Of a stretch of 38,572 nucleotides of DNA, positions 13,785 to 36,725 are shown piece after piece. The first letter of the stretch is position 1. Every line of letters starts with the position of its first letter. The stretch covers positions 1 through 38,572 of the IMG/VR virus record IMGVR_UViG_3300047375_000398. The stretch is one strand, 5' to 3'. The position numbers and the translations under genes were made by a program. Source of the DNA: a virus (Duplodnaviria; Caudoviricetes). Under the pieces are notes generated by a model. It had not been told where the DNA came from. It saw only the letters and a program-made list of their open reading frames with translations, and made no database searches.

Positions 13785-16214
13785 TTATTTTGGCGAAAAT
13801 CTACTTAAATCAATACCACCTAAAACATCATTTCCTTTTGATTCAAAAGATTTTGAGGGCTTACCGGATGAAGGTGGCCCAGAAACAGATTTAGTAGATG
13901 CTTTTACATTTTCTCTTTCCATTGCTCCTTGATTATTAACTTGAGTTAATTCTTTTTGAGCTTGTAATTCTAATTGTTTTAATTGAACATTTAATTCATA
14001 TTCATACTGCATTAACTCTCTTTTTGTTTGAGCTTCTACTTCTAATTTTTTTATTTCAAATTCAATATCAGCTTGTCTATATTGTATTTTAGATTCTGTT
14101 TTAATTTGTTCAGCTTGAGCTTTTGCTTCTTCTATTTGAACTTGAGCAGCGCCTTGAGCTTCAGCTTGAGCTACACTAGCAGCTTGAGCCATTTGCTGAT
14201 CCATTTGTTGTTTTCTTACTCTTTTTATTTTAAGTAATTGATTAGCAAGTTTTAAATTTTTAACTTCTCTAATATCTATAGCATCTTCTAAATTAATGCT
14301 ATCTTTAGATAAAGCTATTTGAATGTTTGCTTCTAATAAAGATTTTTCTTCTTCATCGGGCATTAATTCTAAAAATATACCAAAATCATGTAGATGTAAG
14401 TTTTTTATTTCTTCTAATGAGCCTACAGAAAACTGACCTAATGCTCCTATAAAAGCTTCTTTTGTTGGATGAAATTCTAAAACATCTTTAAACCTTAAAC
14501 ATATAGCTTCAGCTAAAGCTAATGTTATATATAGACTACTATCTAATATATGTCTTGTAGCTGTATTACTGTTTGCTGCTGCAAGTTTCTGTACACCAAC
14601 TAACGCATTAGGGTCTGGATCAGAACCATCTCTAGCTTCGTTTAATCCAGTTACATCCCTCATCATTTGAATGTAATTATTGTAAGCACCTATTAAAACT
14701 TGTATTTGATTGCCGGTACTTCCTGGAAGCTCTTGAATAGGAACTTTACCAGGATTTTGATCTCCTTCAACTGTCAATGATCTACCTATGATAGAACCTG
14801 TTTGAAAATACATGTTTAATGCTTCTTGAGCATTATAATTTGTACCATTACCCAAATCAACTTCTGCAATACCATCTGCATCTAAAAATACACCTGATGG
14901 AACCATTCTTTGAATAGCTTGTTGAAGTTTTAAATGTGTAAGCTGTATTAAATCAGCATAAGGCGTCATTTTAGATACCAAAGATGTTATATTACCTTTG
15001 TATATTCTTGGAGCTGATACCGTGTAGTTCATTAATACTTTGTTAGTATTAGAACTAGGTCTTATCATATTTGTAGCCTTATTCCATTCAAGTAAAATGT
15101 TACTACCTAATATATAAGCTCCTTCATATATTACCTCTCTAGCTTGAGCTACTCTTTCAAATCTTGTTCTTTTATCTTGAGGTGGATTAAATGTATCATC
15201 TTTTAATATAGCTTTGTCGGCACCTGTAGATGTTTCTTTAATTTTATAAACATTATTTTCCCAAGTTTTCCAATTAAAGTATAATACAGTTAATGTATTA
15301 TTATTATCTATTTCACTGTTTCTGTTTCTGTTAAAATGATCTTTATTGTAATTAACCCAGTTAGAACCTTTTTTAACAAACTCTGCTATTTCTTCATTTG
15401 GTAAATCTGGAAATTGTTTTTTAAGTTCATTTACCGGTATTCTTTTTATTTCACCAAAATAATAACAATCTTCAAAATTAGGGTCATCTGTATAAGACCA
15501 AACTAAATTAGCTGGATCTACATAGTCCACTTTTATACCATCAGTATTATTAAAAGTATTTTTAACAGCACCTATTCCTAAAACCGCTAAATCATAATCA
15601 ACTCGTTTTTTTATTTGAGGATATTTGTTTGATAAAAAAACATTGTTAATTGCTTGCTCTTCTGCTATTTCTATACCTTGCTTATATCCTAATTGCATGT
15701 AAAGCTCTAGCTCTTCAGTGTTTTGAGGTAAATCTTCTTCTGGAACATTTCTAGCATTAACACCTAATTGAGCTTCTACTTGTTTTAACATTTCTTGAGC
15801 ATTTATATCTCTAGTAATATCATTAACAAATTGAGTTCTTTTTCCTGTTGATATAGGATCTTGTGCAAAAGCCTTTATGTCATACAGTCTATCTTGCATA
15901 CCATTAACAACTATGTCTACAAACTTAGGTATTATAGGTACAGGTTTCCAGTCTAAATTTAAATAAGATAAATCACCATTTGTAGCAAATTCATCTTTAT
16001 ATTTTTTAATAGATTGTTCACCTCTTGCATATAATCTTAGTCTATTAAACTCTTCGCTTACTTGATAATACATGCCTGGGTTATTATCTCTATTAAACCA
16101 TTCTTGTTCAATAGCTCTTCCAACCGATAGACCATATTCAGAAGACATTTTTTCTTCATCTGAGACAGCTTGACTCGGAAATTGTGTAGGAAGTTGTCCT
16201 GTTGTTATTGCCAT
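13785..16214 (-). CDS. Portal protein, 809 aa
   Basis: Motifs RLRLYARGEQS, LSYLNLDWKPVPIIPKFVDIVVNG, YVDPANLVWSY, RDVTGLNEARDGS, plus a coiled-coil C-terminus. Immediately after terminase. Confidence 0.85.
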   Translation of the reverse strand: MAITTGQLPTQFPSQAVSDEEKMSSEYGLSVGRAIEQEWFNRDNNPGMYYQVSEEFNRLRLYARGEQSIKKYKDEFATNGDLSYLNLDWKPVPIIPKFVDIVVNGMQDRLYDIKAFAQDPISTGKRTQFVNDITRDINAQEMLKQVEAQLGVNARNVPEEDLPQNTEELELYMQLGYKQGIEIAEEQAINNVFLSNKYPQIKKRVDYDLAVLGIGAVKNTFNNTDGIKVDYVDPANLVWSYTDDPNFEDCYYFGEIKRIPVNELKKQFPDLPNEEIAEFVKKGSNWVNYNKDHFNRNRNSEIDNNNTLTVLYFNWKTWENNVYKIKETSTGADKAILKDDTFNPPQDKRTRFERVAQAREVIYEGAYILGSNILLEWNKATNMIRPSSNTNKVLMNYTVSAPRIYKGNITSLVSKMTPYADLIQLTHLKLQQAIQRMVPSGVFLDADGIAEVDLGNGTNYNAQEALNMYFQTGSIIGRSLTVEGDQNPGKVPIQELPGSTGNQIQVLIGAYNNYIQMMRDVTGLNEARDGSDPDPNALVGVQKLAAANSNTATRHILDSSLYITLALAEAICLRFKDVLEFHPTKEAFIGALGQFSVGSLEEIKNLHLHDFGIFLELMPDEEEKSLLEANIQIALSKDSINLEDAIDIREVKNLKLANQLLKIKRVRKQQMDQQMAQAASVAQAEAQGAAQVQIEEAKAQAEQIKTESKIQYRQADIEFEIKKLEVEAQTKRELMQYEYELNVQLKQLELQAQKELTQVNNQGAMERENVKASTKSVSGPPSSGKPSKSFESKGNDVLGGIDLSRFSPK

Positions 16215-16216
16215 AT

Positions 16217-18448
16217 TTATTGTATTATCTTACTCATTGATCCATCGTTTTTATATTTAGCAAAACGAAAATCTATTTTTTTATTTGTTCTTTCCATATT
16301 AGGCCTATACATGTGTTTTCTACAAGCCATGATTGCAAGTCCACTACTTATTGATGCATCATGAGATGTTCTTCGAGATATATCAAATCTTGCCCAGTCT
16401 TCTAATGTTTTTTGAAAATACATACTACCATGATTTTCTTCTTTACGTCCTACATAATCCTCTATGTAAGACTCAATAGCAGCGGCATGAGCTTGTTTTA
16501 TATCTTCAGATGTATTTGGTATACCTCCTAATTCTATTTCTGTTTTAGATAAATTACCTAAGAGTTTATCAGGTCTATTCATTGAATAACCTCTATAACC
16601 TCTTCTTTTTAAGTGATATAATAATCTTGGTTTATTATTTTCTGCAAGTATTGGCATACCGTAAAATACTAATGCCATTAATACTTCTTCAAAAAATATT
16701 TCTGCTGTCTGTGGTCGTGCTATATATTCTAAGAAAAACTTAGTATTAGGCACATCGTTTACCATAGAAAAAGTAGTTAATCCGTGAAGAGCACCATTAG
16801 ACCCACCACCCCCAACAGTACCGCTGATATCATAACTATCGCATCCGAAGGCTCCGAAGCCATCATTACCAGGATATTTAATACCATTTTTTGTAATTAT
16901 ATTATTTTGTATATTATCTGGTGGTATCCAAGATATTTTAAACCTACCGTTTTTAGTAGGTACCCATATAACTTTAGTATCTTTTATACCATTTTGCCAA
17001 GCAAAAGTTCCACGAACAACATAACCTTTAATAGCCATCTCTTCGTTAAAATCTATTTGCTCGTATATTTTAGTTAGATTAAATAATGAATTAACTGTTT
17101 CATCTCTAAAAGCGTGCTTTTCAGATCTTGGAAATTGTCTGTAATATTCATTTAAAGCATCGCTGTCTCTTTTTAATCCTTCTACTTCATTTTCCCAATG
17201 ATCAATGACTCCCGTAAAAATTTTTTCTCCATCAATTCCTTCAATCGGTTCTGATGGTGTGTCGAAGACAGGATATCCGTACTTGTCAATAAACCCTTCG
17301 TATCCCCACTCCATAGGTATGAACAAAGAATATAATCCACTTGTAGTCTGGCCATTGCGGTTTCTATTTGTGACATTTGAATTATAAAATAATTTTTTAA
17401 AGTTATCTCCACCTTTGTTTAAAGCATTAGATGTTGATCCCATCATGCATTTACCAACTACTCTGGCACCGAGCCTGAGGCACGTTTTTGTGACCCTCCA
17501 GTTGTTGAGTATGTTGTCCGGCCTCTCCCATTTACCCGATTCATCATGGACGAGGAGTTGTAACTTCTCCCCATCGTACGAGTTGTCTCCCGTGTTCTTC
17601 CAGTCGATCGTGGTATCGAGCCCCTGCCCAAATTCCTCCTGACTATAGGTTTCTTTAATGGCGTTTCTGGTAAGTCTTCTTGACGGTATTTTATAGGAAA
17701 GCTCCGTCTTCGGTCGTTCCATCCCATCCTGTATTGGTTTGAAAAAAAATGGATAGTTGATTGATATGGGTACAATCTTGTCTGTAAACATCTTCTTTGC
17801 ATCTGCTCCAGTTTTAGATAAAACCCCAAATCTAGAGTCCTTGGAAGTTGTTGCCAAGTTAACAGTCTCTGAGGATGCCATGAAGCTAAAGCCAGACCGT
17901 CTATTCTTGAGGTAGCACATTCCATAAGATCTCTTATCTGCCTTGCATGCCTCCCAAAAGTAATAAAAGATTCTGTTTGCCTGCCTAAAATCTGGTGCTC
18001 CCACGTCGATCTTTGTCCAAGAGAGATAGACATAGTGCGATCCTGTAATGTAGTTCGCGGAACCGTTGCACATGAACCAATACCCATCATTACGATAATT
18101 AAACTCACTATCAATATATTTGTAGTATTTTTCTTTAATATCTTCGGGATAGGATTGAAAGTCATATATGCTTTTTATTTTATTTAAAGATTCAGGTTTG
18201 TTTTTTATTTTAAAAAATTGATCTGACTGCTTTAAGTCTTCTCCATCTATTGCATCTGGAGTTTTAGGTATTGCCACCTTAAGACCTTGTATTTCATATA
18301 TATCACCTATTGTACCGTCTTTACTTATTACAACACAGTCTAAATCTTCATTGTATCCATATTCAAACTTCTTATGTTTATTAAGATGCTTAATTTTTTT
18401 ATCAGATAAATGAGTATTGTGTATTTTATAAAGCGTTTGTTTGTACAT
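16217..18448 (-). CDS. terL: Terminase large subunit, 743 aa
   Basis: Walker A-like LKNRRSGFS, Walker B LLVHDESGKW, coupling motif MGST, nuclease motifs FGCDSYD, LAENNK and HDASISSGLA. Confidence 0.9.
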   Translation of the reverse strand: MYKQTLYKIHNTHLSDKKIKHLNKHKKFEYGYNEDLDCVVISKDGTIGDIYEIQGLKVAIPKTPDAIDGEDLKQSDQFFKIKNKPESLNKIKSIYDFQSYPEDIKEKYYKYIDSEFNYRNDGYWFMCNGSANYITGSHYVYLSWTKIDVGAPDFRQANRIFYYFWEACKADKRSYGMCYLKNRRSGFSFMASSETVNLATTSKDSRFGVLSKTGADAKKMFTDKIVPISINYPFFFKPIQDGMERPKTELSYKIPSRRLTRNAIKETYSQEEFGQGLDTTIDWKNTGDNSYDGEKLQLLVHDESGKWERPDNILNNWRVTKTCLRLGARVVGKCMMGSTSNALNKGGDNFKKLFYNSNVTNRNRNGQTTSGLYSLFIPMEWGYEGFIDKYGYPVFDTPSEPIEGIDGEKIFTGVIDHWENEVEGLKRDSDALNEYYRQFPRSEKHAFRDETVNSLFNLTKIYEQIDFNEEMAIKGYVVRGTFAWQNGIKDTKVIWVPTKNGRFKISWIPPDNIQNNIITKNGIKYPGNDGFGAFGCDSYDISGTVGGGGSNGALHGLTTFSMVNDVPNTKFFLEYIARPQTAEIFFEEVLMALVFYGMPILAENNKPRLLYHLKRRGYRGYSMNRPDKLLGNLSKTEIELGGIPNTSEDIKQAHAAAIESYIEDYVGRKEENHGSMYFQKTLEDWARFDISRRTSHDASISSGLAIMACRKHMYRPNMERTNKKIDFRFAKYKNDGSMSKIIQ
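17458..18165 (-). CDS. Overprinted predicted lipoprotein in +1 frame inside terL, 235 aa
   Basis: 235 stop-free codons in an AT-rich genome. N-terminus has a basic region (KILKK), hydrophobic core (ILIVSLIIVMM) and lipobox IGS-C32. Coincides with a GC-rich island in terL. Confidence 0.55.
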   Translation of the reverse strand: MTFNPIPKILKKNTTNILIVSLIIVMMGIGSCATVPRTTLQDRTMSISLGQRSTWEHQILGRQTESFITFGRHARQIRDLMECATSRIDGLALASWHPQRLLTWQQLPRTLDLGFYLKLEQMQRRCLQTRLYPYQSTIHFFSNQYRMGWNDRRRSFPIKYRQEDLPETPLKKPIVRRNLGRGSIPRSTGRTRETTRTMGRSYNSSSMMNRVNGRGRTTYSTTGGSQKRASGSVPE

Positions 18449-18690
18449 TATTTGATTCTATTTTCAACACCTAAAAAAGTATGAGATTCTTTGCTAGATT
18501 TTTTATCAGATAACTCTTCAATTTTTTCTATAATTTTTAATGAATCTTCTATTGCAACCCACTTAGCTTGAGCTGCTGTTTTTGCTTTTTCAGGATCTAA
18601 TTCAGATAAATCAATTTTTTGTTTAATAACTTTTTCAAGTTCAATCAATGCTTTTTCCGCTGCTTCTATTATTCTTTTTCTTCGGTCCAT
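18448..18690 (-). CDS. Small helical protein, possible terminase small subunit, 80 aa
   Basis: Stop overlaps the terL ATG. Charged helical sequence. Function inferred from position only. Confidence 0.5.
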   Translation of the reverse strand: MDRRKRIIEAAEKALIELEKVIKQKIDLSELDPEKAKTAAQAKWVAIEDSLKIIEKIEELSDKKSSKESHTFLGVENRIK

Positions 18691-19243
18691 AATTAATAGT
18701 TATATGATTTGATAAAATTCTATAAAGTTTTTGACCTTCAATATTAAATTCATATTCAGAGTTAGGTGTAAACCCTACCACGTCTCCTATAGACACTCCT
18801 AATGAACTTAATTGGCTGTTTGTGTATGCTAGCTCCCCTTTTAAATTTTCGTCTGTATCAAGCGCCCATTTATCTTTTATTTTTATAGGCTTTACAAAGC
18901 AATATCCAGGTAGTGCAACCCACTTATTATTTTTTTTACATGCAAAAACTTGATCTGTTCCTACAGTATATTTGTCTTCATCAAGATAACTAGCAGAATT
19001 ACGTTCTTGCTGTTGTTGGTTTAACCATCTTCTAAAAACATTATGATGAACAATTATTTCATCCCCTACTTCTACTTCTGTTTTTATACCAGCTGGAACA
19101 CTAACAACTTTACCAATACGATTAACAAACATGTAATCTCTTTCTGTAATCTCTGTATTAACAACTAATTTTTTGTCATCAACATCAACTACGTTATTGT
19201 AACGATTTTCAGTAGATATAATATAATCAAAAAGTGCCTGCAT
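18641..19243 (-). CDS. groES: GroES-like co-chaperonin, probably two tandem GroES-type domains, 200 aa
   Basis: GKVVSVP...VEVGDEIIVHHN and GYCFVKP...GVSIGDVVGF...IEGQKLYRI match GroES strand patterns. Confidence 0.6.
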   Translation of the reverse strand: MQALFDYIISTENRYNNVVDVDDKKLVVNTEITERDYMFVNRIGKVVSVPAGIKTEVEVGDEIIVHHNVFRRWLNQQQQERNSASYLDEDKYTVGTDQVFACKKNNKWVALPGYCFVKPIKIKDKWALDTDENLKGELAYTNSQLSSLGVSIGDVVGFTPNSEYEFNIEGQKLYRILSNHITINYGPKKKNNRSSGKSID

Positions 19244-19474: not shown

Positions 19475-19819
19475 TTAGTATGTCCATATGGTCATTGGCG
19501 GAGCGCCATCATAACCTATACCTACATGAACAAAGTTGTTTTTTCTACTTATACCTATTCTTTTAAAACCTACTTCAATTGCAGCTTTAACTAACCTATA
19601 AGTAGCTTCACCTCCTGAACAAGCCATATCTACAGCTGCACCATAAGTATGCTCACCAGGTTTAGACTTACGCGCCTCTATTGGATGTTGAGGTGATCTG
19701 TATGTTGATGTTAATGTAATTGGATATCCATATGCTTCTCTAAGATCATCTAGCATCTCAAGAAGCTTAGGGTCCATTTTGTCAAAGTTATTAAATTCAG
19801 ATTCATTAAAATGTTTCAT
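19475..19819 (-). CDS. Peptidase M15A family (Zn peptidase) putative endolysin, 114 aa
   Basis: MDPKLLEMLDDLR, ITLTSTYR, EHTYGAAVD (H-x6-D) and FVHV zinc-ligand motifs. Confidence 0.8.
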   Translation of the reverse strand: MKHFNESEFNNFDKMDPKLLEMLDDLREAYGYPITLTSTYRSPQHPIEARKSKPGEHTYGAAVDMACSGGEATYRLVKAAIEVGFKRIGISRKNNFVHVGIGYDGAPPMTIWTY

Positions 19820-19823: not shown

Positions 19824-19976
19824 TTATTCTTTTGATTTCTTTAATATCATTAGTATTGTGTATCCTATTGATAACAATAAAACTACTGTCTGTAGTACTG
19901 TATTTATTTCAGGTATTACTGAAAATATCATTGCTCCTACGTTTATTCCAAAGATCTTAAAATCTTGTTCTATCAT
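19824..19976 (-). CDS. Small membrane protein, putative holin, 50 aa (not in ORF track)
   Basis: MIEQDFKIFGINVGAMIFSVIPEINTVLQTVVLLLSIGYTILMILKKSKE: two hydrophobic segments and a basic C-terminus. ATGA overlap with upstream gene, directly before the endolysin. Confidence 0.65.
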   Translation of the reverse strand: MIEQDFKIFGINVGAMIFSVIPEINTVLQTVVLLLSIGYTILMILKKSKE

Positions 19977-20398
19977 TGTTTATGTTTATTATTTCCAAAT
20001 ACCTTCTCGACGCCGCGAGAACCAAAATAGCCTCCTATGACTATAGTTAATAATGAAGTCACTGATTCCAGTGAATAGCCGGCGTACCACCCTATAACAT
20101 ATGATATTGTTAAAAATACAAGAACCAATGGTCGGACGTTGGACGCAAGCCAGTTACCGCTTCGAGCATCTGCTACCCATCTTTTGGTTGTGCCATCAAT
20201 TTCGGCTCTTTCTATTCTTAACTTTTCTAGTGCAACTTGTTTATCGCCTTCTGAAAGCTGAGAGTTACCACTAATTAGTTCTGATATTACATTTCCCGGC
20301 AATATTGCGTCGCCGACCATTCCTAGAATACTTGGTGCCTTTTCAATTAAAAATCGTCCGACACCTGTATCTTTAAAAGGTTTCTTTTTTTCACTCAT
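19973..20398 (-). CDS. Holin-like membrane protein (GTA holin 3TM-like), 141 aa
   Basis: RWVADARSGNWLASNVRPL followed by two TM helices, then GGYFGSRGVEK. Confidence 0.7.
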   Translation of the reverse strand: MSEKKKPFKDTGVGRFLIEKAPSILGMVGDAILPGNVISELISGNSQLSEGDKQVALEKLRIERAEIDGTTKRWVADARSGNWLASNVRPLVLVFLTISYVIGWYAGYSLESVTSLLTIVIGGYFGSRGVEKVFGNNKHKQ

Positions 20399-20408: not shown

Positions 20409-23400
20409 TTAAGCTATTGCTAAAAATATATATTTATAACCATTTTCATTTAACATTGCATCAGCAATGTTTTGATTTGGAAACGAAAATCCTGTAGCTG
20501 TTGTTGTAAATGTATTTAACGTACTATCAGTTTCTGCGTTACTTAAATTAGGGTTTAAACATTTTCCACTACCTCTTACCGCATCAAGAATAGCCCAATT
20601 TTCTGGGTAAGTTGCTTGACTTGCTTTAACCATTATAAATCTAGGTTGAAACCCAGTGTAAATAGTAACTCCAGCGGTTTGTCCAATATAAGAGCCCACT
20701 TTACTATAACCCGGTATTGAAGTGAAACAATAGGCTATCATATTTGTGCCACTTACATTAGGACCGTAAATATCATTTCCAAGACCAAATACTTCAGAAG
20801 TAAATGCAGAATCTCTAAAATAATCTCCAGCGCCATTTTGCTGTGAATCTGAAGTGTTTAAATACAAGTGATAGTTAGTTGATAAATCTTTATGATAAGT
20901 AATCCACGAGTTGTACGTCGCAAGGTTTGCTGTACCTTTTGTGATTACAAGTTCAGCCTGTTGACCTAATCCTGTTCCTACAGTTGCATCATTACCATTA
21001 CCAGTCCAGCTAACAATACTAAATCCAGCATCTACATTAGCAGCAACTGTGCTTGGTATTGTACCATCAGTATTACCAGTTAAATAACCTGGCTGACCAA
21101 ATGTTACATTACTAGATGCGCCGCTATAATTACCACTTAAATCTACTGCATTTGTTTGTAGTGGATAAGCTGCAATACAGCCTGCACCTGCAGGATAGTT
21201 TAACGTATTATTACTTGCAGCTGGTTCTGTATATAAATCAGCTGCTTCACTTGAGGTTAATGTGTCATTAAATATTCTTAATTGAGCTATTTCCCCACTA
21301 AAAAAATTAACTGTACCACCTTGGCTTGCACCTGTTGTTACTGTTGGAGTTTGTCCGCTATGAGAATTTGAGCTAGCTGTCCAAGTAGTTGGAGATCCTC
21401 CATCTATATATGTATTATATGTGGTTTGATTAGATGTTACCGCTACATGATGCCAATTACCGTCATTATATGTTGTTGATGAAGCTGTCATATTGCTATC
21501 TCCACCGCTAAATCTTGTTGCCACATTAACTATACCATTATATAAATATAATTGTATATTATAATTATTACTAGTATAATCATCAAACAAAGCTCTGTTA
21601 CCTGTAGCTGTAGTTTTAAACCAAAGTGAAACACTAAATGTTGCTTTTGTAGAAAACATAGATGATAACCCAGATATAATAATATCACTATTACTACCAT
21701 TAAAGCCAGTTGATAAATTAGCTAAAGGTGCTTTCCAGTTCCAAGCTACGTATGTAGAATTATTTTCATTATTTAAATCACTAGGATAACTACCACTGCT
21801 TCCAGCTTGATAAGTAACCCCGTCTGTACCAAATGCAGATATATAACCATATTGGTCTATACTTCCCGCTGCGCCATTTGATGCAGAATATAAAGCAGAA
21901 CCTGTTCCTGCGCCATTAACTATATTCTGTAATAAGTGATTTGCCGTAGATGGACCTCTTTTTTTAGTCCAAGTAAAATCTGGGGCAAATCCTACGCCTG
22001 TAATTGATCTTGAGCTTGCGCCATTACCTGTATATAAAACAGTATTAAAGTGATCTAAAGCATTTATAGCTGCTGGTTCACATTCAACTTCTTTGTAAAG
22101 TGTAGATACATTAGCTGCTGATAGTGCTGAGTCGTATATCCTTATTTGGTCTAATTTTATATCAGAATACGATGTGCTCCCATTTGAGTAAGTAATGGCT
22201 CCAAATCTATTTGATTTTGTAGAACTTGTAGTGGTGGTTGGGATAGTAGAACCTGTATATGTATTAGATAAATTAGTTAATGTTTCTGCACTGCCATTTA
22301 AATATAAGTACATCGTTCCACTTGACCAAATAACGCAAATATGATGCCAAGTATTTGTGCTTAATGCTGTATTACCTCTATTATGTTGTCTATTATCAGA
22401 AGTATCTGCTACAAAAAAGTTTAAATAACCAGAAGCATCTGTACCAATTTGAATTCCTCCAACTTGAACTGATGAGTTATATTTTGTAAAGAAATTTTTA
22501 TCGGCATTTGAACTATTTACATCAACCCAGGCGGAAAAACTCCACGTTGTAGAGCCCTCATAAGTACTACTAAAGGCAGCTGGTAATGTTATAACACTGC
22601 TACTACCATTAAACGCTCCAGCAAATCCAAACTTACCTTCAGTGTTAAAGTTAACATTAGTAGCTGTACCATTGTAATTACCTAACTGATCTGTAGCATC
22701 TGACATTTTATAATATGCAACGCTGTTAGGGTTTGCGAGCTGATAATCTATATTATTACTTTGTGCTGTTGTAGTTGTTTCATTATACAAAGCTGTTACA
22801 GCTGATTGTGGTAAGGCTGTATTAAAAAATCTTATTTGGTCTAACTTTCCATCAAACTCATATCCAGAAGCTAAACTATATTTTCCTATTGTTACACCAT
22901 TTGTATTAAAGGATACAGTTCCTGACATCGTATCTGTAGCCTTTAATACTCCATTTAAATAAATTTTTCCAACTTGGTTTGAATCATAAGTAACTACAAT
23001 ATGCTCCCAACTTCCAGTACCAGAAGCAGTTGCTCGAAGATCCATGATTCCCCCTGCGGTATTGTTTAATTGAAAAACATATTCTGAGTAATTATATTCA
23101 AACTGCCAACCATAGCTTCCACTTGAACCATTGCCTTTATCTATGATAAAATCCCTATTTGTTGTATTTCTATTAACCCATACGCTTAAACTTGTAGGAG
23201 TTGTAAAATTAAATGCTTGGGCTCCCGGCGGGGATATTGTTATTGTACTATTACTCCCATTAAATACAGCAGCATTACCAAATTTTCCTGCTGCATAAGT
23301 TATATTACTAGCTGTACCATTATAAGAAACTGGATAACTTATGCTAGCGCTTTGTGCTGTTGTAGTTGTTTCATTATATAGAGTAGTTCGCTCTGTAGAA

Positions 23401-24116
23401 GATAATGCTTTGTCAAAGATTCTTATTTGGTCTATTGAACCATCGAAATAATAACCTGAACTATATGTTCCAACGTAAAGAACTGAAGAGTTTATTGATG
23501 CAGAGCCAGTTGAAATTGATACTTCTAAATTGTCATCTACATAAAGTTTTAAGCTAGAATTAGGTATGTCATCCACTATAACAGCTAAATGCCAATTACC
23601 ATCATTAAAATTACCACTACTGCTGTCAGCATAATAGTTTGTTCCTCTCCTTGATGAAATTTCAATTTTACCGCTTGATGGTTTTAAAAAGCAGTCAAAA
23701 TTAAATGCTGAACCATCACCATAATCTGAAACAATAGCTCTATTTCCTCCTGACGTAACTGAAGTTTTAAACCACACAGAACAAGATTTTGCAGAAGTAG
23801 AAGCTAACCAATTTGACAAAGGTAAAGTAATAACACTACTGCTGCCATTAAATACAGCAGCATTACCAAACTTACCAGCGGCATACGTTATATTGCTGGC
23901 TGTACCAGGATATGTATTGCTTGGTATAGAAGTCGTAGCATTATTTAACTGATACGTAGCTATAGATGTAGCTGATTGATTATAAGGTATTGAATTAGCA
24001 TTACTATTCAATTCATATGTAGCTACAGAAGCAGTTGATGTAGGTGCTGTAAATAACTGATCTGTGTCCGTTGTACACGCAATTCCAAAAGCTGATAACA
24101 GACTTTGTCCAAACAT
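20409..24116 (-). CDS. Tail fibre/adhesin with four LamG (ConA-like) domains and a C-terminal phage fibre domain, 1235 aa
   Basis: Repeated GKFGNAAVFNGS...SVWF...W(H/E)H...IDQIRIF...LYNE units. C-terminal FNTVLYTGNG...VAWNWKA...AGFSIVSWTGNG...YIFLAIA domain. Confidence 0.8.
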   Translation of the reverse strand: MFGQSLLSAFGIACTTDTDQLFTAPTSTASVATYELNSNANSIPYNQSATSIATYQLNNATTSIPSNTYPGTASNITYAAGKFGNAAVFNGSSSVITLPLSNWLASTSAKSCSVWFKTSVTSGGNRAIVSDYGDGSAFNFDCFLKPSSGKIEISSRRGTNYYADSSSGNFNDGNWHLAVIVDDIPNSSLKLYVDDNLEVSISTGSASINSSVLYVGTYSSGYYFDGSIDQIRIFDKALSSTERTTLYNETTTTAQSASISYPVSYNGTASNITYAAGKFGNAAVFNGSNSTITISPPGAQAFNFTTPTSLSVWVNRNTTNRDFIIDKGNGSSGSYGWQFEYNYSEYVFQLNNTAGGIMDLRATASGTGSWEHIVVTYDSNQVGKIYLNGVLKATDTMSGTVSFNTNGVTIGKYSLASGYEFDGKLDQIRFFNTALPQSAVTALYNETTTTAQSNNIDYQLANPNSVAYYKMSDATDQLGNYNGTATNVNFNTEGKFGFAGAFNGSSSVITLPAAFSSTYEGSTTWSFSAWVDVNSSNADKNFFTKYNSSVQVGGIQIGTDASGYLNFFVADTSDNRQHNRGNTALSTNTWHHICVIWSSGTMYLYLNGSAETLTNLSNTYTGSTIPTTTTSSTKSNRFGAITYSNGSTSYSDIKLDQIRIYDSALSAANVSTLYKEVECEPAAINALDHFNTVLYTGNGASSRSITGVGFAPDFTWTKKRGPSTANHLLQNIVNGAGTGSALYSASNGAAGSIDQYGYISAFGTDGVTYQAGSSGSYPSDLNNENNSTYVAWNWKAPLANLSTGFNGSNSDIIISGLSSMFSTKATFSVSLWFKTTATGNRALFDDYTSNNYNIQLYLYNGIVNVATRFSGGDSNMTASSTTYNDGNWHHVAVTSNQTTYNTYIDGGSPTTWTASSNSHSGQTPTVTTGASQGGTVNFFSGEIAQLRIFNDTLTSSEAADLYTEPAASNNTLNYPAGAGCIAAYPLQTNAVDLSGNYSGASSNVTFGQPGYLTGNTDGTIPSTVAANVDAGFSIVSWTGNGNDATVGTGLGQQAELVITKGTANLATYNSWITYHKDLSTNYHLYLNTSDSQQNGAGDYFRDSAFTSEVFGLGNDIYGPNVSGTNMIAYCFTSIPGYSKVGSYIGQTAGVTIYTGFQPRFIMVKASQATYPENWAILDAVRGSGKCLNPNLSNAETDSTLNTFTTTATGFSFPNQNIADAMLNENGYKYIFLAIA

Positions 24117-24119
24117 ACT

Positions 24120-24563
24120 TTAAGCTATTTGTGATATAGTATACCAAAATTCAGTGGCACCTACACATGTGATTTGTATAAAGTTTTTAGCAGCTGCAGT
24201 ATCACTATAGTCACCAGATATTTTATTAAATGTACCTGCTGATCCGCCAACTGTAAAACCTACTGTATATGAACCGCCTGCACCGGTTACAACTATAGCT
24301 TTAGTTACACCGATCACAGGATTAGTTATATTAAGTGTAGTATTAGCATTAGGTGTTAATGTAAATACTTGAGCTGCTGTATAATCTACATCAATTGTAG
24401 CCGCTGGTGTTAAAGCAGTAGCTGTTGTAAATTCAGTACCTACTTTAGTGCTGGTAACACTAGCCGCAGCTAATTTACTAGAAGTTACATTAGCATTGAC
24501 TATTTTTGATGTTGTGACTGCGTCGTCATTTAATACGTTACTTGTTACTTTTGTTAAAGCCAT
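24120..24563 (-). CDS. Short tail fibre/structural protein, 147 aa
   Basis: MALTKV N-terminus, 10-aa repeats (DDAVTTSKIV/NANVTSSKLA/AASVTSTKVG), beta-rich C-terminus. Confidence 0.6.
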   Translation of the reverse strand: MALTKVTSNVLNDDAVTTSKIVNANVTSSKLAAASVTSTKVGTEFTTATALTPAATIDVDYTAAQVFTLTPNANTTLNITNPVIGVTKAIVVTGAGGSYTVGFTVGGSAGTFNKISGDYSDTAAAKNFIQITCVGATEFWYTISQIA

Positions 24564-24569
24564 TTTTTA

Positions 24570-27254
24570 TTAATTTTCTTTTATTGCTAAGTAAATATAA
24601 GTTCCTCCAGATGCATTAACCCAGGTTTCAGCTGATGAAATTGTAAATCCTGTACTTGTAAATGCGGTATTCCAAGCGTTACTTTCTGCTGCAGCTGAAT
24701 TTGGAAATAAAGCATATGCATTTGATCCCATTCCTCTTGCGCTATCCATAATAACCCAAGAACCAGCAGCATCAGTTCTTTTAATCATAATAAACGAAGG
24801 TTCAAAACCTGTTGTAATTGAATTAGCGCTTGATGTTCCAGTATAAGAGCCCACTTTGCTATAACCTGGAATTGATGTGAAACAGTAGGCTATAAAACCA
24901 TTAGAAGTGTTTATCGATGCTCCAATACTAAAAACTGTACTTGTTGGCTCTGTTCCTGCAAATATAGACGGGGGCGAACCTGAATTTAAACTCTCCGCAG
25001 CGGTTGAATTTAATCTAATAAAGTAATTAGCAGGATTTGTTCCTCCATTTAAATACTTGTTATATGTCCACCAATCCCCAGTAGATAAAGATTTTACAAT
25101 ATACATTTCAGGTGCAGAACTTAATCCGTGTCCTATTGTTGCGCTTGATTGACTTTCTCCTGTATAATTCACAATACTAAATCCAGCAGCTTGATTTGCT
25201 GAAACTAAACTTGTAATAGATCCATCTGTGTTTATAGATGCTAATCCCCCAGCTTTCCAAGACCAAGCAACACTATTAAACCCACTTTCATTAACACTTC
25301 CAAAAGCTGAAGCTCCTAAAGTAAAACCATTACTATCATAACTCATTAAATCATAACCACTATCATCAAACTCTGCTCCTGTTCCTGTGTAACCTCCGAT
25401 TGTAGTAGCTACTCCAGAATTTAAAAATTTGTTCACACCTCTTATACTATTATAAATTTGATATGGATAAGCACCTGTTCTATTTTTAAACCAAATTAAA
25501 TCGGGTTTAAAACTTATTGTACCTGATTGATTTGATAAAGAATTAGTAGATTGTGCACTATTTGTTCCAGAATATGTTTCTGCGTTAAAACTATTAGCTA
25601 AACTAGGTGTTGTTGTAGAGCCGTCTGCAGCTATAGCTAAGTAGATGTAAGACCTACCACTCATATTAATGCCTGAGTCATTAGTTAAAAGCTCAAATCC
25701 ATTAGACAGAAAGTTTGCTTTAGCATAAATATCATTTACCTGTTCAGCGCCGCTAGCTTCAGCGTAAAGAACATTGTCTCTTGGATTACTTGAATTCCTT
25801 TTATTATCCAACATAACCCATCCACCTCCATGTGTATAACCTTTTATCATTAAGAATGCAGGTTCAAATCCTGTTTGTATTATATGGCTTGTTGTACCAT
25901 TACCAGCATAATAGTCTACTTTACTAAAACCTGGTTTTGATGCAAAATTATATGCTATATACTCTCCGCCACTAGCGTTTACAGACGAACTTGCACTTAT
26001 AGAAACAGTTGTAGTATTTCCGCCTAACATAACACCATCTGCTTGTTGTGCATCACTTGTATTTAAATATAAATTATTATTAGCAGATAAAAAAGATGAA
26101 TATACATACCAATATCCTGTCGAATCTGTTCTTTTAACCATAGATATATTGACTTGGCTTCCTAAACCATGCCCAAAAGTTGCACCACTTGTTCCATTTC
26201 CTGTATATTTAGAAATGCTAAATCCTAAAGTAGTATTAGCACTAACTTGACTTGTTATAGTTCCATCAGTATTTGCTACAGGAGCTCCTCCAGCTTTCCA
26301 AGCCCATGCAACCCAATCATTAGATGCATATCTGGAACTTCCAGTTGTAAAACTAGTTGAACCAATTGCAGTTATTCCACTGTCATTAGCTTGAGCGCTA
26401 TTAAGATTAGGATACACATTTTCATAAGTTGTACCTCCATCTTTACCTCTAACGCTATCAAGAAGAAAATGATTATTAACGTAATTTCTACTTTTAATCC
26501 AAATCATATCAGATTCAAAACCAGTAGATATAGACCTAGTGCTTGAACCGTTTCCAGACCATATAACAGGGGTAAAATGATTACTAGGAAGATCAGGAGT
26601 TACAGTTATATTAAATGATCTAGCAGAACTAGTTTGATTTTCATCATCTGTAGCTGTAATACTAAATGTTGTTGTTGTAGACGCTGATACAGAACCTGCT
26701 GTACCTGTAATAGCTCCTGTAGCTGTTGCTAAAGATAAACCTGTTGGTAAAGTACCTGTGGTTACAGCGTACTCTATAGTATCACTGCCTTCTGTAGCTG
26801 TTACTTGAAAAGAAGCTGTGGATCCTGATTGAACACTACCTATATTACCTGAAGCTGTTGACCACACTGGTACACCGCTATATTGTATAAAGTTTGCTTG
26901 TGAAACTGTACCACCATCTGGGTTTGTTACCGCTACAGTATATTGACCAGCTGCTTTAGCTGGTGTAGTAATTGTAATTTGTGTAGCAGAATTAAAAGCT
27001 GTAACAGCTGACGTACCACCTACTGTACAAGTTATACCTGAAGCAAATAATGTACCATTAATAATAACACTTTCACCTCCTGCGGGATCTGCAGCTGTTT
27101 GAGTTCCAGGATAATCAATAGATGTTATTGTAGGATCAAGAATAGTTGATGCCCAAGACATGCCACCTGTACCATCAGCCTTTAAAAACTGACCGTCTGT
27201 ACCGTTATCTGATACGCCATAAAATTGTCCTGCCTTAGGTTTAGTTTGAGCCAT
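24570..27254 (-). CDS. Tail fibre with IPT/TIG and putative Ig domains plus two tandem C-terminal fibre domains, 894 aa
   Basis: PTITSI...VIINGTLF...ITITTPAKAAGQYTVAVTNPDG (IPT). GTLPTGLSLATATGAITGT (He_PIG-like). Two copies of a domain ending YIYLAI. Confidence 0.75.
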   Translation of the reverse strand: MAQTKPKAGQFYGVSDNGTDGQFLKADGTGGMSWASTILDPTITSIDYPGTQTAADPAGGESVIINGTLFASGITCTVGGTSAVTAFNSATQITITTPAKAAGQYTVAVTNPDGGTVSQANFIQYSGVPVWSTASGNIGSVQSGSTASFQVTATEGSDTIEYAVTTGTLPTGLSLATATGAITGTAGSVSASTTTTFSITATDDENQTSSARSFNITVTPDLPSNHFTPVIWSGNGSSTRSISTGFESDMIWIKSRNYVNNHFLLDSVRGKDGGTTYENVYPNLNSAQANDSGITAIGSTSFTTGSSRYASNDWVAWAWKAGGAPVANTDGTITSQVSANTTLGFSISKYTGNGTSGATFGHGLGSQVNISMVKRTDSTGYWYVYSSFLSANNNLYLNTSDAQQADGVMLGGNTTTVSISASSSVNASGGEYIAYNFASKPGFSKVDYYAGNGTTSHIIQTGFEPAFLMIKGYTHGGGWVMLDNKRNSSNPRDNVLYAEASGAEQVNDIYAKANFLSNGFELLTNDSGINMSGRSYIYLAIAADGSTTTPSLANSFNAETYSGTNSAQSTNSLSNQSGTISFKPDLIWFKNRTGAYPYQIYNSIRGVNKFLNSGVATTIGGYTGTGAEFDDSGYDLMSYDSNGFTLGASAFGSVNESGFNSVAWSWKAGGLASINTDGSITSLVSANQAAGFSIVNYTGESQSSATIGHGLSSAPEMYIVKSLSTGDWWTYNKYLNGGTNPANYFIRLNSTAAESLNSGSPPSIFAGTEPTSTVFSIGASINTSNGFIAYCFTSIPGYSKVGSYTGTSSANSITTGFEPSFIMIKRTDAAGSWVIMDSARGMGSNAYALFPNSAAAESNAWNTAFTSTGFTISSAETWVNASGGTYIYLAIKEN

Positions 27255-27626
27255 TTATTCTGTTATTAAATCCCACTCTTGATTTTCTTCATCCCATGTA
27301 TATCTTTCTCCATCATCTGGATACTCAACTGGTGCTTGCCATAAACATGATGTTTCATCTAGCGTCCAGCTAGCATATGGTTTAGGTGGAATAAATGCAT
27401 CGCGAGCATAGTCATAAGTATATCCTATACCTGCATAATTTTTTCTATATGGAGTACCATCACCTGAGTGTACACCACCACTTGTATTGTAAGAAGTTCT
27501 TTTACAAACTTGTTTTCTTACATCTTGGTATTCTAGTTCCCAGTTTGTATTTGTATCGCCTTCGTCTCTACCTACTATTACTTCGGTTACTACGTTAGCC
27601 ATATCTAAAAATGCGTAATGTGCCAT
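27255..27626 (-). CDS. Fibre-associated small protein, 123 aa
   Basis: MAHYAFLD...KRTSYNT...RKNYAGIGYTYD...DAFIPPKPYASWTLDE...WDEENQEW, a family I recall next to Gly-rich fibre genes in aquatic phages. Confidence 0.65.
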   Translation of the reverse strand: MAHYAFLDMANVVTEVIVGRDEGDTNTNWELEYQDVRKQVCKRTSYNTSGGVHSGDGTPYRKNYAGIGYTYDYARDAFIPPKPYASWTLDETSCLWQAPVEYPDDGERYTWDEENQEWDLITE

Positions 27627-27630
27627 ATTA

Positions 27631-28863
27631 TTAGTTAAATTGTATATTTCCTGTTCCTGCTGTAAATACTGCTATTTTTTCAGAGCCAGATGTAATATCA
27701 ATAGCTCCTGTTAGTCCTGCGGATTTTGTTAATGTATTAGCCGCTGGGTATCTTAGTATAACAGTGCCTGATCCGCCATTTCCTCCTGATTCCGTTGATG
27801 TATAAAGCCCTAAATAAGCAGGACCACCACCGCCACCAGCTGTATTTGTAGTCCCCGCTTGTCCCCCAGCTGGCCTTGATGCTGCCGTATTACCACCACC
27901 ACCAAGTCCTCCAGTTCCTGGTGTATATCCAGCAGTATCATTTTTAGATCCTCCAGCGCCACCTCCTGAAAAATATACAGAACCTCCATTTACTTCACCA
28001 ACACTATATACGCCTGCTTCTGATGTGCTTATAATTGTTGTAGTTGCACCAACACCACCACTTCCTGCAGTTGTACCTACACCTGCTGTTCCAGCCGCAC
28101 CAGCACCGCCGCCACCGCCTCCAGAATAGTTAGCTCCATAAGTACCTCCTGCACCATCATTACCTTGTGAGGGGGTTGTTGAAGGCGTATTACCTGATCC
28201 GGCTCTAGCTACTGGATAACCACCACCACCGCCACCAGAACCACCATCTGCGTTTGTGGTTGCGCCGTCATAGTTTTTAATACCACCACCACCGCCGGTT
28301 GATGTAATAGTACTAAATACTGAATCTGAACCTTGTGATGCATTATTTGTATTCTGAAGTGCACCGCCACCTCCAGCTCCTATTGTAACTACCGCACTAA
28401 TTCCTGCGGTTAAAGTTAAAGATCCTGTTCTATAACCGCCAGCTCCACCACCACCGTTTGATGCACCGCCACCGCCTGCGGCTACTAAATAATTAGCCGT
28501 TACTGGACCGGCAATTAACGCAATATTATCAGCTGTCCAGCCTTTTGTAGCGTCCTGATAAACTAAATTTACAGTTGCATTGTTTGTTACACATTTATAA
28601 TCATCAGTTGTTCCTTGTATTTTTTCAGAACCATTAGAAGCAAATATCACTTTGTTAGCTGCAAATGTACCAGCATAGTCTTGTATAATAACTTCGTTAC
28701 CAACTACTCCTGCTGGTAAAGTAACTGTTATTTCTGCCGAGGTAGTATTAACAAAATAACCTTTTGCAGCTTCAGCTGTAAAATTACTTGTCTGGATGGT
28801 TGATACCCATTCAGTACCAAAAGTTCCGTCTATTAAGTTTTTTGTTAATTTTGTTAATGCCAT
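27631..28863 (-). CDS. Gly-rich tail fibre protein, 410 aa
   Basis: N-terminal GYFVNTT...TLPAG...QDYAGTF module, then a glycine-rich domain (YLVAAGGGG...GGSGTVILRYP). Confidence 0.7.
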   Translation of the reverse strand: MALTKLTKNLIDGTFGTEWVSTIQTSNFTAEAAKGYFVNTTSAEITVTLPAGVVGNEVIIQDYAGTFAANKVIFASNGSEKIQGTTDDYKCVTNNATVNLVYQDATKGWTADNIALIAGPVTANYLVAAGGGGASNGGGGAGGYRTGSLTLTAGISAVVTIGAGGGGALQNTNNASQGSDSVFSTITSTGGGGGIKNYDGATTNADGGSGGGGGGYPVARAGSGNTPSTTPSQGNDGAGGTYGANYSGGGGGGAGAAGTAGVGTTAGSGGVGATTTIISTSEAGVYSVGEVNGGSVYFSGGGAGGSKNDTAGYTPGTGGLGGGGNTAASRPAGGQAGTTNTAGGGGGPAYLGLYTSTESGGNGGSGTVILRYPAANTLTKSAGLTGAIDITSGSEKIAVFTAGTGNIQFN

Positions 28864-31355: not shown

Positions 31356-31358
31356 AAA

Positions 31359-32723
31359 TTATATTTCTTGAATAAGTACTCTTATATCATTTGTTGTTGG
31401 TGCTGTTGTAAAGCTTACTGTTACAATATTAGCACTTGTTCTTACAACATCAGCATATACCGTATCATAAGTTGATAAATCATAAAGTTGTACTATAACA
31501 TCAAAACTATTTAAATTGTGTGTAATGGTATATGATGTAGCTGATCCATTACCTATTGATGCTGTAAATGTCTTATTTGAAAGCTGTACCCAACCAGCTG
31601 TGTCTACAGTAAAATCTGCAGAGTCATAACCAGATATACCTTTTATAGCAGCACCTGAAGTGGCCGCTGCGGTAGCTATGTCTATATTACTCTGAACAAC
31701 TGTCCAATTAGCCAATGCGCTACCAGCTGCTGCGGCCGTTGCTACTTCCGCAATTAAAAAGTCACCTATTCTTACTTGTTCTGAGAAGAATAAACCATCT
31801 GCAGTTACAGTATACGTGTCACCAACAGCTATAGCTATATTACCACCACTAACGCTGTTACCCATGTTTTGATGGTAGTAACATATATAACTTAAACTTG
31901 GTGCACCTGCTGCCAACGTAACTGTAAGTCTTCTTTGAGTTGCTGCTGCAAATCCACTTATATAATTAGTATAAGTTACTGTAGAACCATCTAAAGTATA
32001 TGTTACGCCAGTGCTATAAACGCCCGCTGCAACAGCTGATGTACTTAATATTAGTGGATGTGATGCATTACTAGCATCATCTTGATTTATAGTATATGAA
32101 GTTCCTTCTATTAATGTTAAAGTTTGCTGCTGTATACCATCTACGTAGTATTTATTAGCACCAGAAGCATTTGATACTGTTATAGTATATGTAGCTGCAC
32201 TTGTTGATGAATCTAAGTCAGGTGTATTTGTAGTAGCATCATAACCACCTTTGTAAGTTAAACCACCAACTACAGCATTGTCAACATATGCTTTTGTAGC
32301 TGCATCTTGTGCAGATGTAGGATCAGTAACACTAATAATTTTATTACTACCCATATCAACATTAGCATTTGCTGCTGCCAATGAACTTATAGGTGTACCT
32401 ATTACAAAGTCATATATTTGATCACCTGTAGCAAGCGCAGTACTATTGTTTGCAACTGTAGCTGTAATAACAGCTAGTTGAACTATAGGCCCAGCACCAT
32501 TTGTTACGGTTAATTGATTTGCAGTACTTGTTGTTATCTCAGTAATATCACCAGAGAATGATGTCCATGCAGTACCATTATAGTAATATACATTATTATC
32601 CGAAGAGTCATAATATATCTGGCCAGATACAGGGTTTGAAGGCGCTGTGCCTAAAACCTGTATTACAGCATTTTGTAGCTGATTCTTGTTTAGATCAAGA
32701 TTGTTTAAAAAATTTATTGCCAT
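31359..32723 (-). CDS. Tail fibre/structural protein with cupredoxin-like insert, 454 aa
   Basis: DPTSAQDAATKAYVD fibre motif, insert with HPL...YICYYHQNMG, C-terminal ITHNLNS domain. Confidence 0.7.
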   Translation of the reverse strand: MAINFLNNLDLNKNQLQNAVIQVLGTAPSNPVSGQIYYDSSDNNVYYYNGTAWTSFSGDITEITTSTANQLTVTNGAGPIVQLAVITATVANNSTALATGDQIYDFVIGTPISSLAAANANVDMGSNKIISVTDPTSAQDAATKAYVDNAVVGGLTYKGGYDATTNTPDLDSSTSAATYTITVSNASGANKYYVDGIQQQTLTLIEGTSYTINQDDASNASHPLILSTSAVAAGVYSTGVTYTLDGSTVTYTNYISGFAAATQRRLTVTLAAGAPSLSYICYYHQNMGNSVSGGNIAIAVGDTYTVTADGLFFSEQVRIGDFLIAEVATAAAAGSALANWTVVQSNIDIATAAATSGAAIKGISGYDSADFTVDTAGWVQLSNKTFTASIGNGSATSYTITHNLNSFDVIVQLYDLSTYDTVYADVVRTSANIVTVSFTTAPTTNDIRVLIQEI

Positions 32724-32729
32724 TTTTGT

Positions 32730-33425: not shown

Positions 33426-33434
33426 ATTATTTTA

Positions 33435-34298: not shown

Positions 34299-34454
34299 CT
34301 ATGCTGTAATTAAGTATAATGTTTTAGGATCTTTAGTACCTATAGCATCATATTGAGCTTGTGTACACTTATAGAAGTTTAATAAAGATTCTGAGTTTGC
34401 AGTAGTAGCATCGTAGTATGGTTGACCACCTATTATGTTTGTTAAATTTGCCAT
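34299..34454 (-). CDS. Small fibre-adaptor-like protein, 51 aa (not in ORF track)
   Basis: MANLTNIIGGQPYYDATTANSESLLNFYKCTQAQYDAIGTKDPKTLYLITA. TAG directly abuts the ATG of the next gene. C-terminus paralogous to 36185-36403. Confidence 0.7.
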   Translation of the reverse strand: MANLTNIIGGQPYYDATTANSESLLNFYKCTQAQYDAIGTKDPKTLYLITA

Positions 34455-34457
34455 TTT

Positions 34458-34613
34458 TTAATTTTTATATGGTATTTTTTTGTTTAGCCATTCTTGACGT
34501 TCATTGCATCCACAATTATCACCAAAGACAGCTTTTACAACTGTCTTTATTCCTGTAGCTGATGTAAACTTTTCTACAGTATCGCCAAAGCCTTTACTTT
34601 TTATAGTAATCAT
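34458..34613 (-). CDS. Small CGC-motif protein, 51 aa (not in ORF track)
   Basis: MITIKSKGFGDTVEKFTSATGIKTVVKAVFGDNCGCNERQEWLNKKIPYKN. Fills the gap and matches a KSKG.GDT...DCGC..R...LN...PY family I recall from Flavobacteria phages. Confidence 0.7.
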   Translation of the reverse strand: MITIKSKGFGDTVEKFTSATGIKTVVKAVFGDNCGCNERQEWLNKKIPYKN

Positions 34614-36403: not shown

Positions 36404-36406
36404 AGC

Positions 36407-36721: not shown

Positions 36722-36725
36722 GTTG

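Follow-up and report, generated by a model that had tools for sequence, protein, structure and literature searches.

In its gene for the terminase large subunit (terL), an uncultured marine phage has a second reading frame. This frame, its start codon, a hydrophobic core and a cysteine have been conserved, and the price was a recoding of terL itself. The window analysed here is the complete virus record IMGVR_UViG_3300047375_000398 (38,572 bases), and the frame, which we call nested gene 1, is an open reading frame (ORF) of 235 codons in the +1 frame of terL (Table 1). Judging from its sequence and those of its relatives, nested gene 1 is almost certainly a real, translated gene. As a whole, the observations are best explained, tentatively, by an overprinted gene that is maintained by selection and encodes a lipid-anchored, disordered envelope protein rich in Arg, Ser, Thr and Pro, likely a late lysis accessory. 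The existence of the gene, and the lipoprotein nature of its product in the group named clade A below, are much firmer than any function.

A long open frame within terL

A sequence-only reading had placed a 235-codon ORF wholly inside terL, over both Walker motifs. It was located there, at terL codons 95–330, across KNRRSGFS and LLVHDE, which we take to be the Walker A and Walker B regions, respectively. The stop-free +1 stretch in terL comprises 238 codons, and the longest such stretch in 19 other long genes of the window is 70 codons. The synonymous shuffling proposed in the same reading bore this out: none of 20,000 whole-gene shuffles of terL reached 238 codons (maximum 168), and shuffling confined to the overlap gave a stop-free result in one case of 20,000. 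The island of G/C-ending codons that it described was also confirmed, with a G+C content at third codon positions (GC3) of 0.51 over codons 110–325 versus 0.19 outside.

Entry into the +1 frame by a programmed frameshift at the T8 run near 17745 was considered and set aside, because a conserved start and leader belong to the +1 frame itself and because the run is broken in most relatives. Among 188 stored proteins related to the nested protein, 35 are frame-fused calls, which we read as gene-calling or sequencing artefacts and not as frameshift products. Neither a sigma-70 scan nor a search for the TAnnTTTG motif revealed enrichment of an internal promoter for nested gene 1.

Distribution in relatives and origin by overprinting

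A search with terL as the query yielded 80 IMG/VR loci, to which 71 loci found with the nested protein, 80 found with the terL of phage ctfjg026 and five GenBank phages were added. Of the resulting 233 terL sequences, 23 were dropped (21 partial and two containing N) and 18 duplicates were removed, leaving 192: 57 of clade A, 29 of grade B, 29 ingroup sequences without the ORF, 72 outgroup sequences and the five GenBank phages. The first tree, of the 80 loci from the terL query, was made without L005, L010, L050 and L077. As assembled, terL is split across frames or internally deleted at G016:16605-18744, at G043:38423-39141 and in L010.

The closest 20 loci of the terL query (73–97% identity) included 18 that could be assessed, and all 18 had an open +1 frame with the same leader. 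In the remaining 60 loci (66–70% identity), a +1 frame of at least 100 codons was present in 31 and not in 29. The frame was open in none of the 72 unique outgroup contigs and in none of the five GenBank phages, so that the distribution of the nested ORF, which was found in the ingroup only, is narrower than that of the ancestral frame; no stand-alone homologue turned up, and 132 profile matches, inspected by eye on the protein level, looked derived from terL, being either this +1 frame or frame-fused calls. Trees built with FastTree and rooted on Gundel recovered clade A as one group from each of three inputs, namely the overlap, the C-terminal half and the whole protein (support 0.99–1.00). 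The ingroup sequences without the ORF were placed at three or more points among grade B, with low deep supports.

Because the frame is open in the close relatives and closed in the outgroup and the GenBank phages, nested gene 1 evidently arose by overprinting, with probable multiple losses. One birth followed by several losses is the simplest reading of these sequences, and separate births in clade A and grade B may have occurred.

Recoding of terL and selection on the new frame

With the codon usage of the sequences themselves, 13.6 stops per sequence were expected in the +1 frame, and none was observed in the 42 full-length members. The clearest traces in terL lie beneath the leader of the nested gene. 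Position 127 of TerL is Cys in 56 members of clade A and Arg in one, and Asn in 129 of the 130 other sequences; Asn127 after Met126 would put a stop in the +1 frame, and Cys or Arg at this position produces the lipobox Cys. In L139, the exception, residue 127 was switched to Arg and the +1 Cys was retained. The codon of Phe125 is TTC, which gives the +1 Ser at –1, in all 57 members of clade A and in only two of the 29 ORF-less ingroup sequences. Over terL codons 113–123, T-ending codons make up 0.75 in clade A versus 0.32–0.37 in the other three groups, the mean hydropathy of the +1 frame is 2.56 versus –0.17 to –0.45, and the TerL residues beneath the hydrophobic core have shifted in clade A to ones that permit T-ending codons. 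These substitutions indicate that terL has been recoded to accommodate nested gene 1. Two further +1 cysteines, at terL codons 177 and 220, are forced by Met codons of terL and were discarded as uninformative.

The checks named beforehand in the sequence-only reading found, in close relatives, an open +1 frame, a conserved Cys and a GC island that is no recombinant patch. The last point was decided by where the island ends. In 32 members with an early stop, GC3 is 0.36 within the ORF, 0.20 past its stop and 0.20 outside. Since the island thus ends at each relative's own +1 stop, and since the trees of clade A are concordant, a patch acquired by recombination was ruled out. The same facts bear on the broader proposal that there is no second protein; the island would then be either a patch acquired by recombination or the result of a constraint at the RNA level, with the open frame as a by-product. 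In its favour, translation of the +1 frame is read from sequence, and the RNA-library contigs that cover the region of nested gene 1 are assembled contigs only, which are no evidence of transcription. Against it stand the drop of GC3 at each +1 stop, the recovery of clade A as a single clade from both the overlap and the C-terminal half (support 0.99), and a start, core and Cys held by specific codon choices; we regard it as highly improbable.

The depression of synonymous variation that the sequence-only reading expected was found in part. In clade A, synonymous change was halved over the leader (0.52 of expected at terL codons 110–145), and reached 0.91 of expected over codons 146–225 (0.59 at four-fold sites). 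Over the tail it was normal: at codons 226–330 it was 1.07 of expected, with no reduction. This lack of reduction counts against the favoured explanation, as do two other facts: four members that stop at codon 281, recently truncated, retain a high GC3 past the stop, and 39 of the 57 clade-A sequences were recruited with the nested protein itself as the query, which leaves the 18 of 18 as the only unbiased figure.

The unreduced change in the tail suggests that selection acts there on composition and length and not on the exact sequence. The +1 stops range from terL codon 225 to 330, and length appears to be favoured, because 48 of the 57 clade-A ORFs reach codons 326–330, beside a forced stop at 335. 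It could be supposed instead that only the leader or the first lipidated residues matter and that the tail is a harmless soluble passenger. The wide range of stop positions, tail sites that change as fast as sites outside the overlap, and a leader whose place differs between clade A and grade B would all fit a passenger, as would the bias towards disorder described as general in overprinted proteins (PMC8227390). However, near-maximal length in 48 of 57 members, where about 13.6 stops are expected, and a composition bias that peaks at the far end speak against it, and we consider a passenger tail quite unlikely.

Start, leader and predicted lipid anchor

The start context of nested gene 1 is A-rich and without a Shine-Dalgarno sequence, as is described for Bacteroidetes starts (PMC6847099), except that position –3 is T and not the favourable A. 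It outscores 21 of the 31 native gene starts of the window, and among 827 other ATGs only 10 reach its score. In all 57 members of clade A an ATG lies 24–31 codons before the Cys, including five in which a substitute ATG takes the place of the usual one. All 57 leaders have a basic n-region and an uncharged hydrophobic core (hydropathy null, P = 0.001 for the window), and the lipobox has Ser at –1 and Cys in all 57, with Ile (48) or Thr (9) at –3. The Gly at –2 falls outside the consensus [LVI][ASTVI][GAS]C as given in PMC6139136. Thus, of the complete type II signal peptide claimed in the sequence-only reading, a conserved leader of the lipoprotein type stands, and its lipobox departs from the consensus at one position. 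In clade A the nested protein is likely a lipoprotein, as far as can be predicted from the leader.

The situation in grade B is different. The hydrophobic core lies 14 codons further on and ends in C-T-C-S-G, and three of the 29 sequences have no ATG at the expected distance. The lipobox of grade B is non-canonical, with Thr or Ile at –1, which counts against the favoured explanation, and the type of anchor in grade B is uncertain. P0081 and P0118, two divergent nested proteins resembling those of clade A, have a shorter leader in which Leu occupies –1 relative to the Cys, and likewise count against it.

The mature N-termini read C-A-T-x-x-R/Q-x-T, without an acidic pair. The surface-export signal of Bacteroidetes lipoproteins is described as K-(D/E)2 or Q-A-(D/E)2 after the Cys (PMC5080379), and no such acidic signal was found after the Cys of the nested proteins. 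For this reason the nested protein is predicted to be a lipoprotein that faces the periplasm.

Composition of the mature chain

The nested chain is enriched two- to nine-fold in Arg, Ser, Thr, Pro and Gly and depleted in Leu, Phe, Ile and Lys, most strongly at its far end; over terL codons 265–330 of clade A, the observed/expected ratios in the +1 frame are 4.9 for Arg, 5.1 for Ser, 7.7 for Pro, 0.19 for Leu and 0.07 for Phe. In the ORF-less phages the corresponding ratios are near 1. The mature chain thus appears to be selected for its composition while varying in length. AlphaFold2, run on an alignment of 36 sequences, gave a mean predicted local distance difference test score (pLDDT) of 38.6, with only the leader helix above 50. 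One modest amphipathic stretch, at residues 69–89, is present in the closed frame of the ORF-less phages too. No match to the nested protein was found in Pfam, PHROG, NCBIfam or annotated phages, and the best ESM Atlas score (0.82) was to unnamed viral clusters. A Bacteroidetes O-glycosylation sequon was also considered and rejected, the average in clade A being 0.1 per protein.

The chain prefers Arg to Lys (3.0–4.9 versus 0.4–0.5 of expected), which would suit phosphate binding, and there are two holin-like genes upstream. A periplasmic regulator of lysis timing is therefore conceivable, in which the Arg-rich chain would bind incoming phage DNA or the holin and delay or tune lysis; RI of phage T4 is an analogue. 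But the holin family is common to phages without the nested gene, and any rise in GC3 yields the same shift from Lys to Arg, so that a timing function seems rather improbable to us.

Relation to spanins

None of the 83 nested proteins scored has a C-terminal membrane helix (highest 17-residue hydropathy 1.55). An inner-membrane spanin (i-spanin) partner, with an N-terminal helix and a periplasmic coiled coil, was sought by heuristic and by eye in the window, in 13 other ORF-bearing contigs and in three grade-B genomes (91–100% complete), and none was seen. Since both the helix and the partner are missing, the nested protein is evidently not a classical spanin; it also showed no similarity to a spanin family in Pfam, PHROG or NCBIfam. 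The sequence-only reading had argued that the absence of a spanin near the lysis genes points to a hidden one. This argument does not hold, because parts of both spanin types are missing and because six near-complete ORF-less genomes (96–100% complete) also have no spanin-like lipoprotein by the heuristic. Moreover, its observation of no spanin covers part of a genome only, the contig being a fragment of 38.6 kb; complete relatives have about 59–68 kb.

Stand-alone lipoproteins were surveyed with an unbenchmarked heuristic that skips nested ORFs, at loci with at least 5 kb upstream of terL. Genes with a lipobox and a C-terminal helix were found upstream of terL in seven of 40 outgroup loci (that of phi19:3 being doubtful), in none of the 36 ORF-bearing loci and in none of 11 ORF-less ingroup loci. 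A stand-alone lipoprotein near the lysis genes was seen at none of 14 clade-A and none of 22 grade-B loci, and none was found anywhere in the three near-complete grade-B genomes. Examination of 30 longer contigs showed a lipoprotein close to the lysis genes in none of 14 carriers of the nested ORF, one of eight ORF-less ingroup contigs (G014) and two of eight outgroup contigs. One locus, L076, which is under the 5 kb cut-off of the survey, has both the nested ORF and an 88-residue lipoprotein among its lysis genes. A strict alternation between the nested gene and a stand-alone lipoprotein was therefore rejected, being contradicted by L076 and by the ORF-less genomes without a lipoprotein.

In G014:17438-19463 (L263), 7–8 kb upstream of terL and in a lineage that lost the nested gene, four exported or membrane proteins are encoded, among them a lipoprotein and an N-anchored protein with a coiled coil by eye; the cassette resembles a two-component spanin system. 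According to PMC12596118, Bacteroidetes phages do not use two-component spanins, and unimolecular spanins are the only type reported for them. Unimolecular-spanin-like genes, with a lipobox and a C-terminal helix, occur at L289:9007-9462 (G024) and L292:5201-5668 (G025), and match phrog_5885, which is listed as of unknown function.

Proposed function

An accessory role in lysis is our likeliest guess for the nested protein, and we put it forward as a possibility, less probable than not; it is only a guess because most relatives without the nested gene also have no spanin. Nested gene 1 lies 1.3 kb downstream of the endolysin gene on the same strand, and the distribution of spanin-like genes would fit a lysis-accessory role without requiring it. 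The protein would be translated from its own A-rich start on a late message that appears to run through holin, endolysin, GroES-like gene, terL and portal. It would then be exported by Sec, lipidated at Cys32 and freed of its leader, and would face the periplasm, where a chain of 100–205 residues with no predicted fold could serve as a flexible basic tether. After the action of holin and endolysin, the Arg-rich tail might bind anionic lipids of the opposite membrane or lipopolysaccharide and so aid the rupture of the outer membrane. Such a protein would act like a unimolecular spanin with charge in place of the C-terminal helix, or like a tethered disruptin.

Several of the observations above weigh against this proposal, namely the missing C-terminal helix and i-spanin partner, the rarity or absence of spanin-like lipoproteins in ORF-less contigs, ingroup loci and near-complete genomes, and the co-occurrence in L076. 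To these must be added that the net charge of the mature chain spans +1 to +25 among members, and that the closed +1 frame of ORF-less phages is mildly basic too (0.01–0.09 per residue versus 0.03–0.14).

The same gene and anchor could instead serve superinfection exclusion or the shielding of progeny, by blocking a receptor or an entry channel. Llp of phage T5 and Cor are lipoproteins that block receptors or entry. The strongest constraint, which falls on the leader and on the residues that come first after the Cys (terL 110–145, 0.52 of expected), would agree with exclusion, and stand-alone lipoproteins without an i-spanin are described as common in phages (31 genomes; PMC6139136). Also in agreement is that a large ORF-less clade has other exported envelope proteins, the +1 frame being closed in all 26 fully covered genomes with one of these, a protein of 346–366 residues; however, these 26 genomes probably form one clade and hence represent one event. 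Furthermore, the nested gene lies late, in the packaging operon, has no predicted fold for receptor binding and shows no PHROG match to any exclusion family. We consider exclusion unlikely, and retain the lysis-accessory role as the preferred guess.

The protein of 346–366 residues (L278:2951-4045 in G017; also in G015, G016, G018, G020 and G030), to which 460 IMG/VR stretches are related, has a lipoprotein-like leader and a C-terminal Phe, is possibly an outer-membrane beta-barrel and has no Pfam or NCBIfam match; a single-sequence fold of its 365-residue form was uninformative (pLDDT 35.8). Adjoining it is a protein of 608 residues with the type IX sorting domain PF18962 (L269:14979-16802 in G015; also in G016 and G018), which we read as phage-borne cargo for the type IX secretion of the host.

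A second constrained element downstream in terL

Synonymous change is also reduced at terL codons 364–395, to 0.51 of expected in clade A, 0.41 in grade B and 0.50 in the large ORF-less clade, versus 1.09 in the outgroup; the element thus shows conservation throughout the ingroup, also in lineages where nested gene 1 is missing. Over codons 358–400, 112 of the 115 ingroup sequences have an open +1 frame, as have 16 of the 72 from the outgroup; since no more than about 1.2 stops are to be expected, this contrast rests on about two sites. None of the other frames is open throughout. The +1 motif D-Y-I-x-C-S-Y-L-W occurs in 57 of 57 sequences of clade A, 24 of 29 of grade B, five of 29 ORF-less ingroup and two of 72 outgroup sequences, and the ATG at 17376 has a strong start context, reached by three of 828 ATGs, itself included. 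No consensus RNA structure, no repetition of the motif in the genome and no protein match were found for it. We lean slightly towards a second nested gene (candidate nested gene 2), and an element of nucleic acid, RNA or DNA, is a serious contender to which we would give a little less than an even chance.

If both nested genes are real, terL might be regarded as a gene nursery, in which the larger gene provides a spanin-free rupture of the outer membrane by a de novo, lipid-anchored, disordered polycation whose signal peptide has moved along terL through the recoding of conserved TerL residues, and the smaller one, under tighter constraint, predates it or cooperates with it; taken together, this scenario is unlikely.

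Comparison with known systems

Like lambda Rz1 within Rz and T7 gene 18.7 within 18.5, nested gene 1 would be a lipoprotein gene nested out of frame in a late gene, and the T7 spanin pair, lying between terS and terL, resembles it in position. It differs from these in that its host gene is a terminase and not an i-spanin, in that no i-spanin partner was found, and, compared with the 83 codons of 18.7, in its disordered chain of 100–205 residues. T7 genes 19.2 and 19.3, cited in the sequence-only reading, are indeed annotated within terL and, going by their coordinates, both occupy its +1 frame; as two +1 ORFs in terL they recall nested gene 1 and candidate nested gene 2. Unlike nested gene 1, these hypothetical proteins of 85 and 57 residues have no clear lipoprotein leader by eye, and the likeness is one of position, because the nested protein had no match in a phage collection that holds T7.

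With unimolecular spanins of the T1 gp11 type the nested proteins share an N-terminal lipobox, a late gene near the lysis cassette and, presumably, a length sufficient to cross the periplasm, but they have neither the C-terminal membrane helix nor a predicted fold. The cationic peptide gp28 of phiKT, a 56-residue amphipathic helix, is described as able to replace spanins (10.1101/515445). This disruptin is, like the nested protein, cationic, membrane-associated and accompanied by no visible spanin, whereas the nested chain is predicted to be lipid-anchored and disordered. With de novo overprinted viral genes as described in PMC8227390, nested gene 1 shares a narrow distribution and a disorder-promoting composition. 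It differs in that its ancestral frame encodes the core of an essential ATPase, visibly recoded, and in that the leader occupies two non-homologous positions.

No published description of nested gene 1 was found in a literature search that was thin on subscription journals. As far as sequences can tell, it exemplifies the overprinting of an essential motor gene with unusually good controls, and its function is a guess. Gene birth by overprinting is rarely caught with controls, and here it carries a measurable cost to a highly conserved phage enzyme: the birth of the gene, its lengthening and its loss can be followed at the level of single codons from the ORF-less outgroup, the varied lengths, the two leader positions and the probable repeated losses. 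Because nested genes are dropped by annotation pipelines, coding capacity stays hidden within a common marker gene of an abundant group of marine phages, and such coding distorts the codon and synonymous-rate signal of terL. If the lysis role is true, it would offer an answer, open to testing, to the question of how phages without spanins, which make up about 13% of genomes in the survey of PMC6139136, breach a Gram-negative host's outer membrane.

Genomic context and probable host

All long genes of the window are encoded by the minus strand and follow one another as tail fibres, holin, 50-residue membrane protein, M15 endolysin, a 73-residue gene, GroES-like gene, an 80-residue gene, terL, portal and structural genes (Table 1). 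The 80-residue gene directly before terL, a small terminase candidate by position only, had no family match in Pfam or PHROG searches. The GroES-like gene lies beside terL, and many relatives have GroEL and a true GroES further upstream.

Table 1. Coordinates of nested gene 1, its parts and neighbouring features in the window
Feature	Position	Strand	Basis
terL, terminase large subunit, 743 residues, ancestral frame	16217–18448	–	phrog_6681, E = 9e-165
Nested gene 1, 235-residue +1 ORF, terL codons 95–330	17458–18165	–	open in 57 clade-A and 29 grade-B of 192 unique terL
A-rich start context without Shine-Dalgarno sequence	18166–18185	–
Hydrophobic core of predicted type II signal peptide	18079–18120	–	codon bias and hydropathy over terL 113–123
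Lipobox I-G-S-C; Cys32, predicted lipid attachment site	18070–18081	–
Mature chain, 204 residues, net charge +21, 30 Arg, no membrane helix, predicted disordered	17461–18072	–
C-terminal third, strongest composition bias	17461–17655	–
Presumed Walker A region of terL, KNRRSGFS, under nested gene 1	17885–17908	–	sequence
Presumed Walker B region of terL, LLVHDE, under nested gene 1	17540–17557	–	sequence
Candidate nested gene 2, 64-residue +1 ORF, alternative ATG 17355	17182–17376	–	constrained core 17264–17359
Portal	13785–16214	–	phrog_6547
80-residue conserved gene before terL	18448–18690	–	conserved, 142 upstream ORF calls
GroES-like gene	18641–19243	–	phrog_13932
Endolysin, peptidase M15	19475–19819	–	PF08291, E = 1e-14; phrog_894
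50-residue protein, two predicted membrane segments, putatively holin-like	19824–19976	–
Holin	19973–20398	–	phrog_3427, E = 3e-13

The terL of the window matches 87 annotated-phage records, with identities of 61% to ctfjg026, 43% to Flavobacterium elemo phages, 36–37% to Cellulophaga phi19:3 and phi38:1 and 30% to Tenacibaculum Gundel. Because of the matches to phages of Flavobacterium, Cellulophaga and Tenacibaculum, we infer a host among the Flavobacteriia. The public runs that best match the phage are labelled marine, seawater or viral metagenome, and the terL pattern is estimated to occur in about 11,000 stored stretches. From 20409 to 38570, the window carries a long series of tail-fibre- or adhesin-like genes (Laminin G, DUF7483 and glycine-rich domains), which differ among the relatives.

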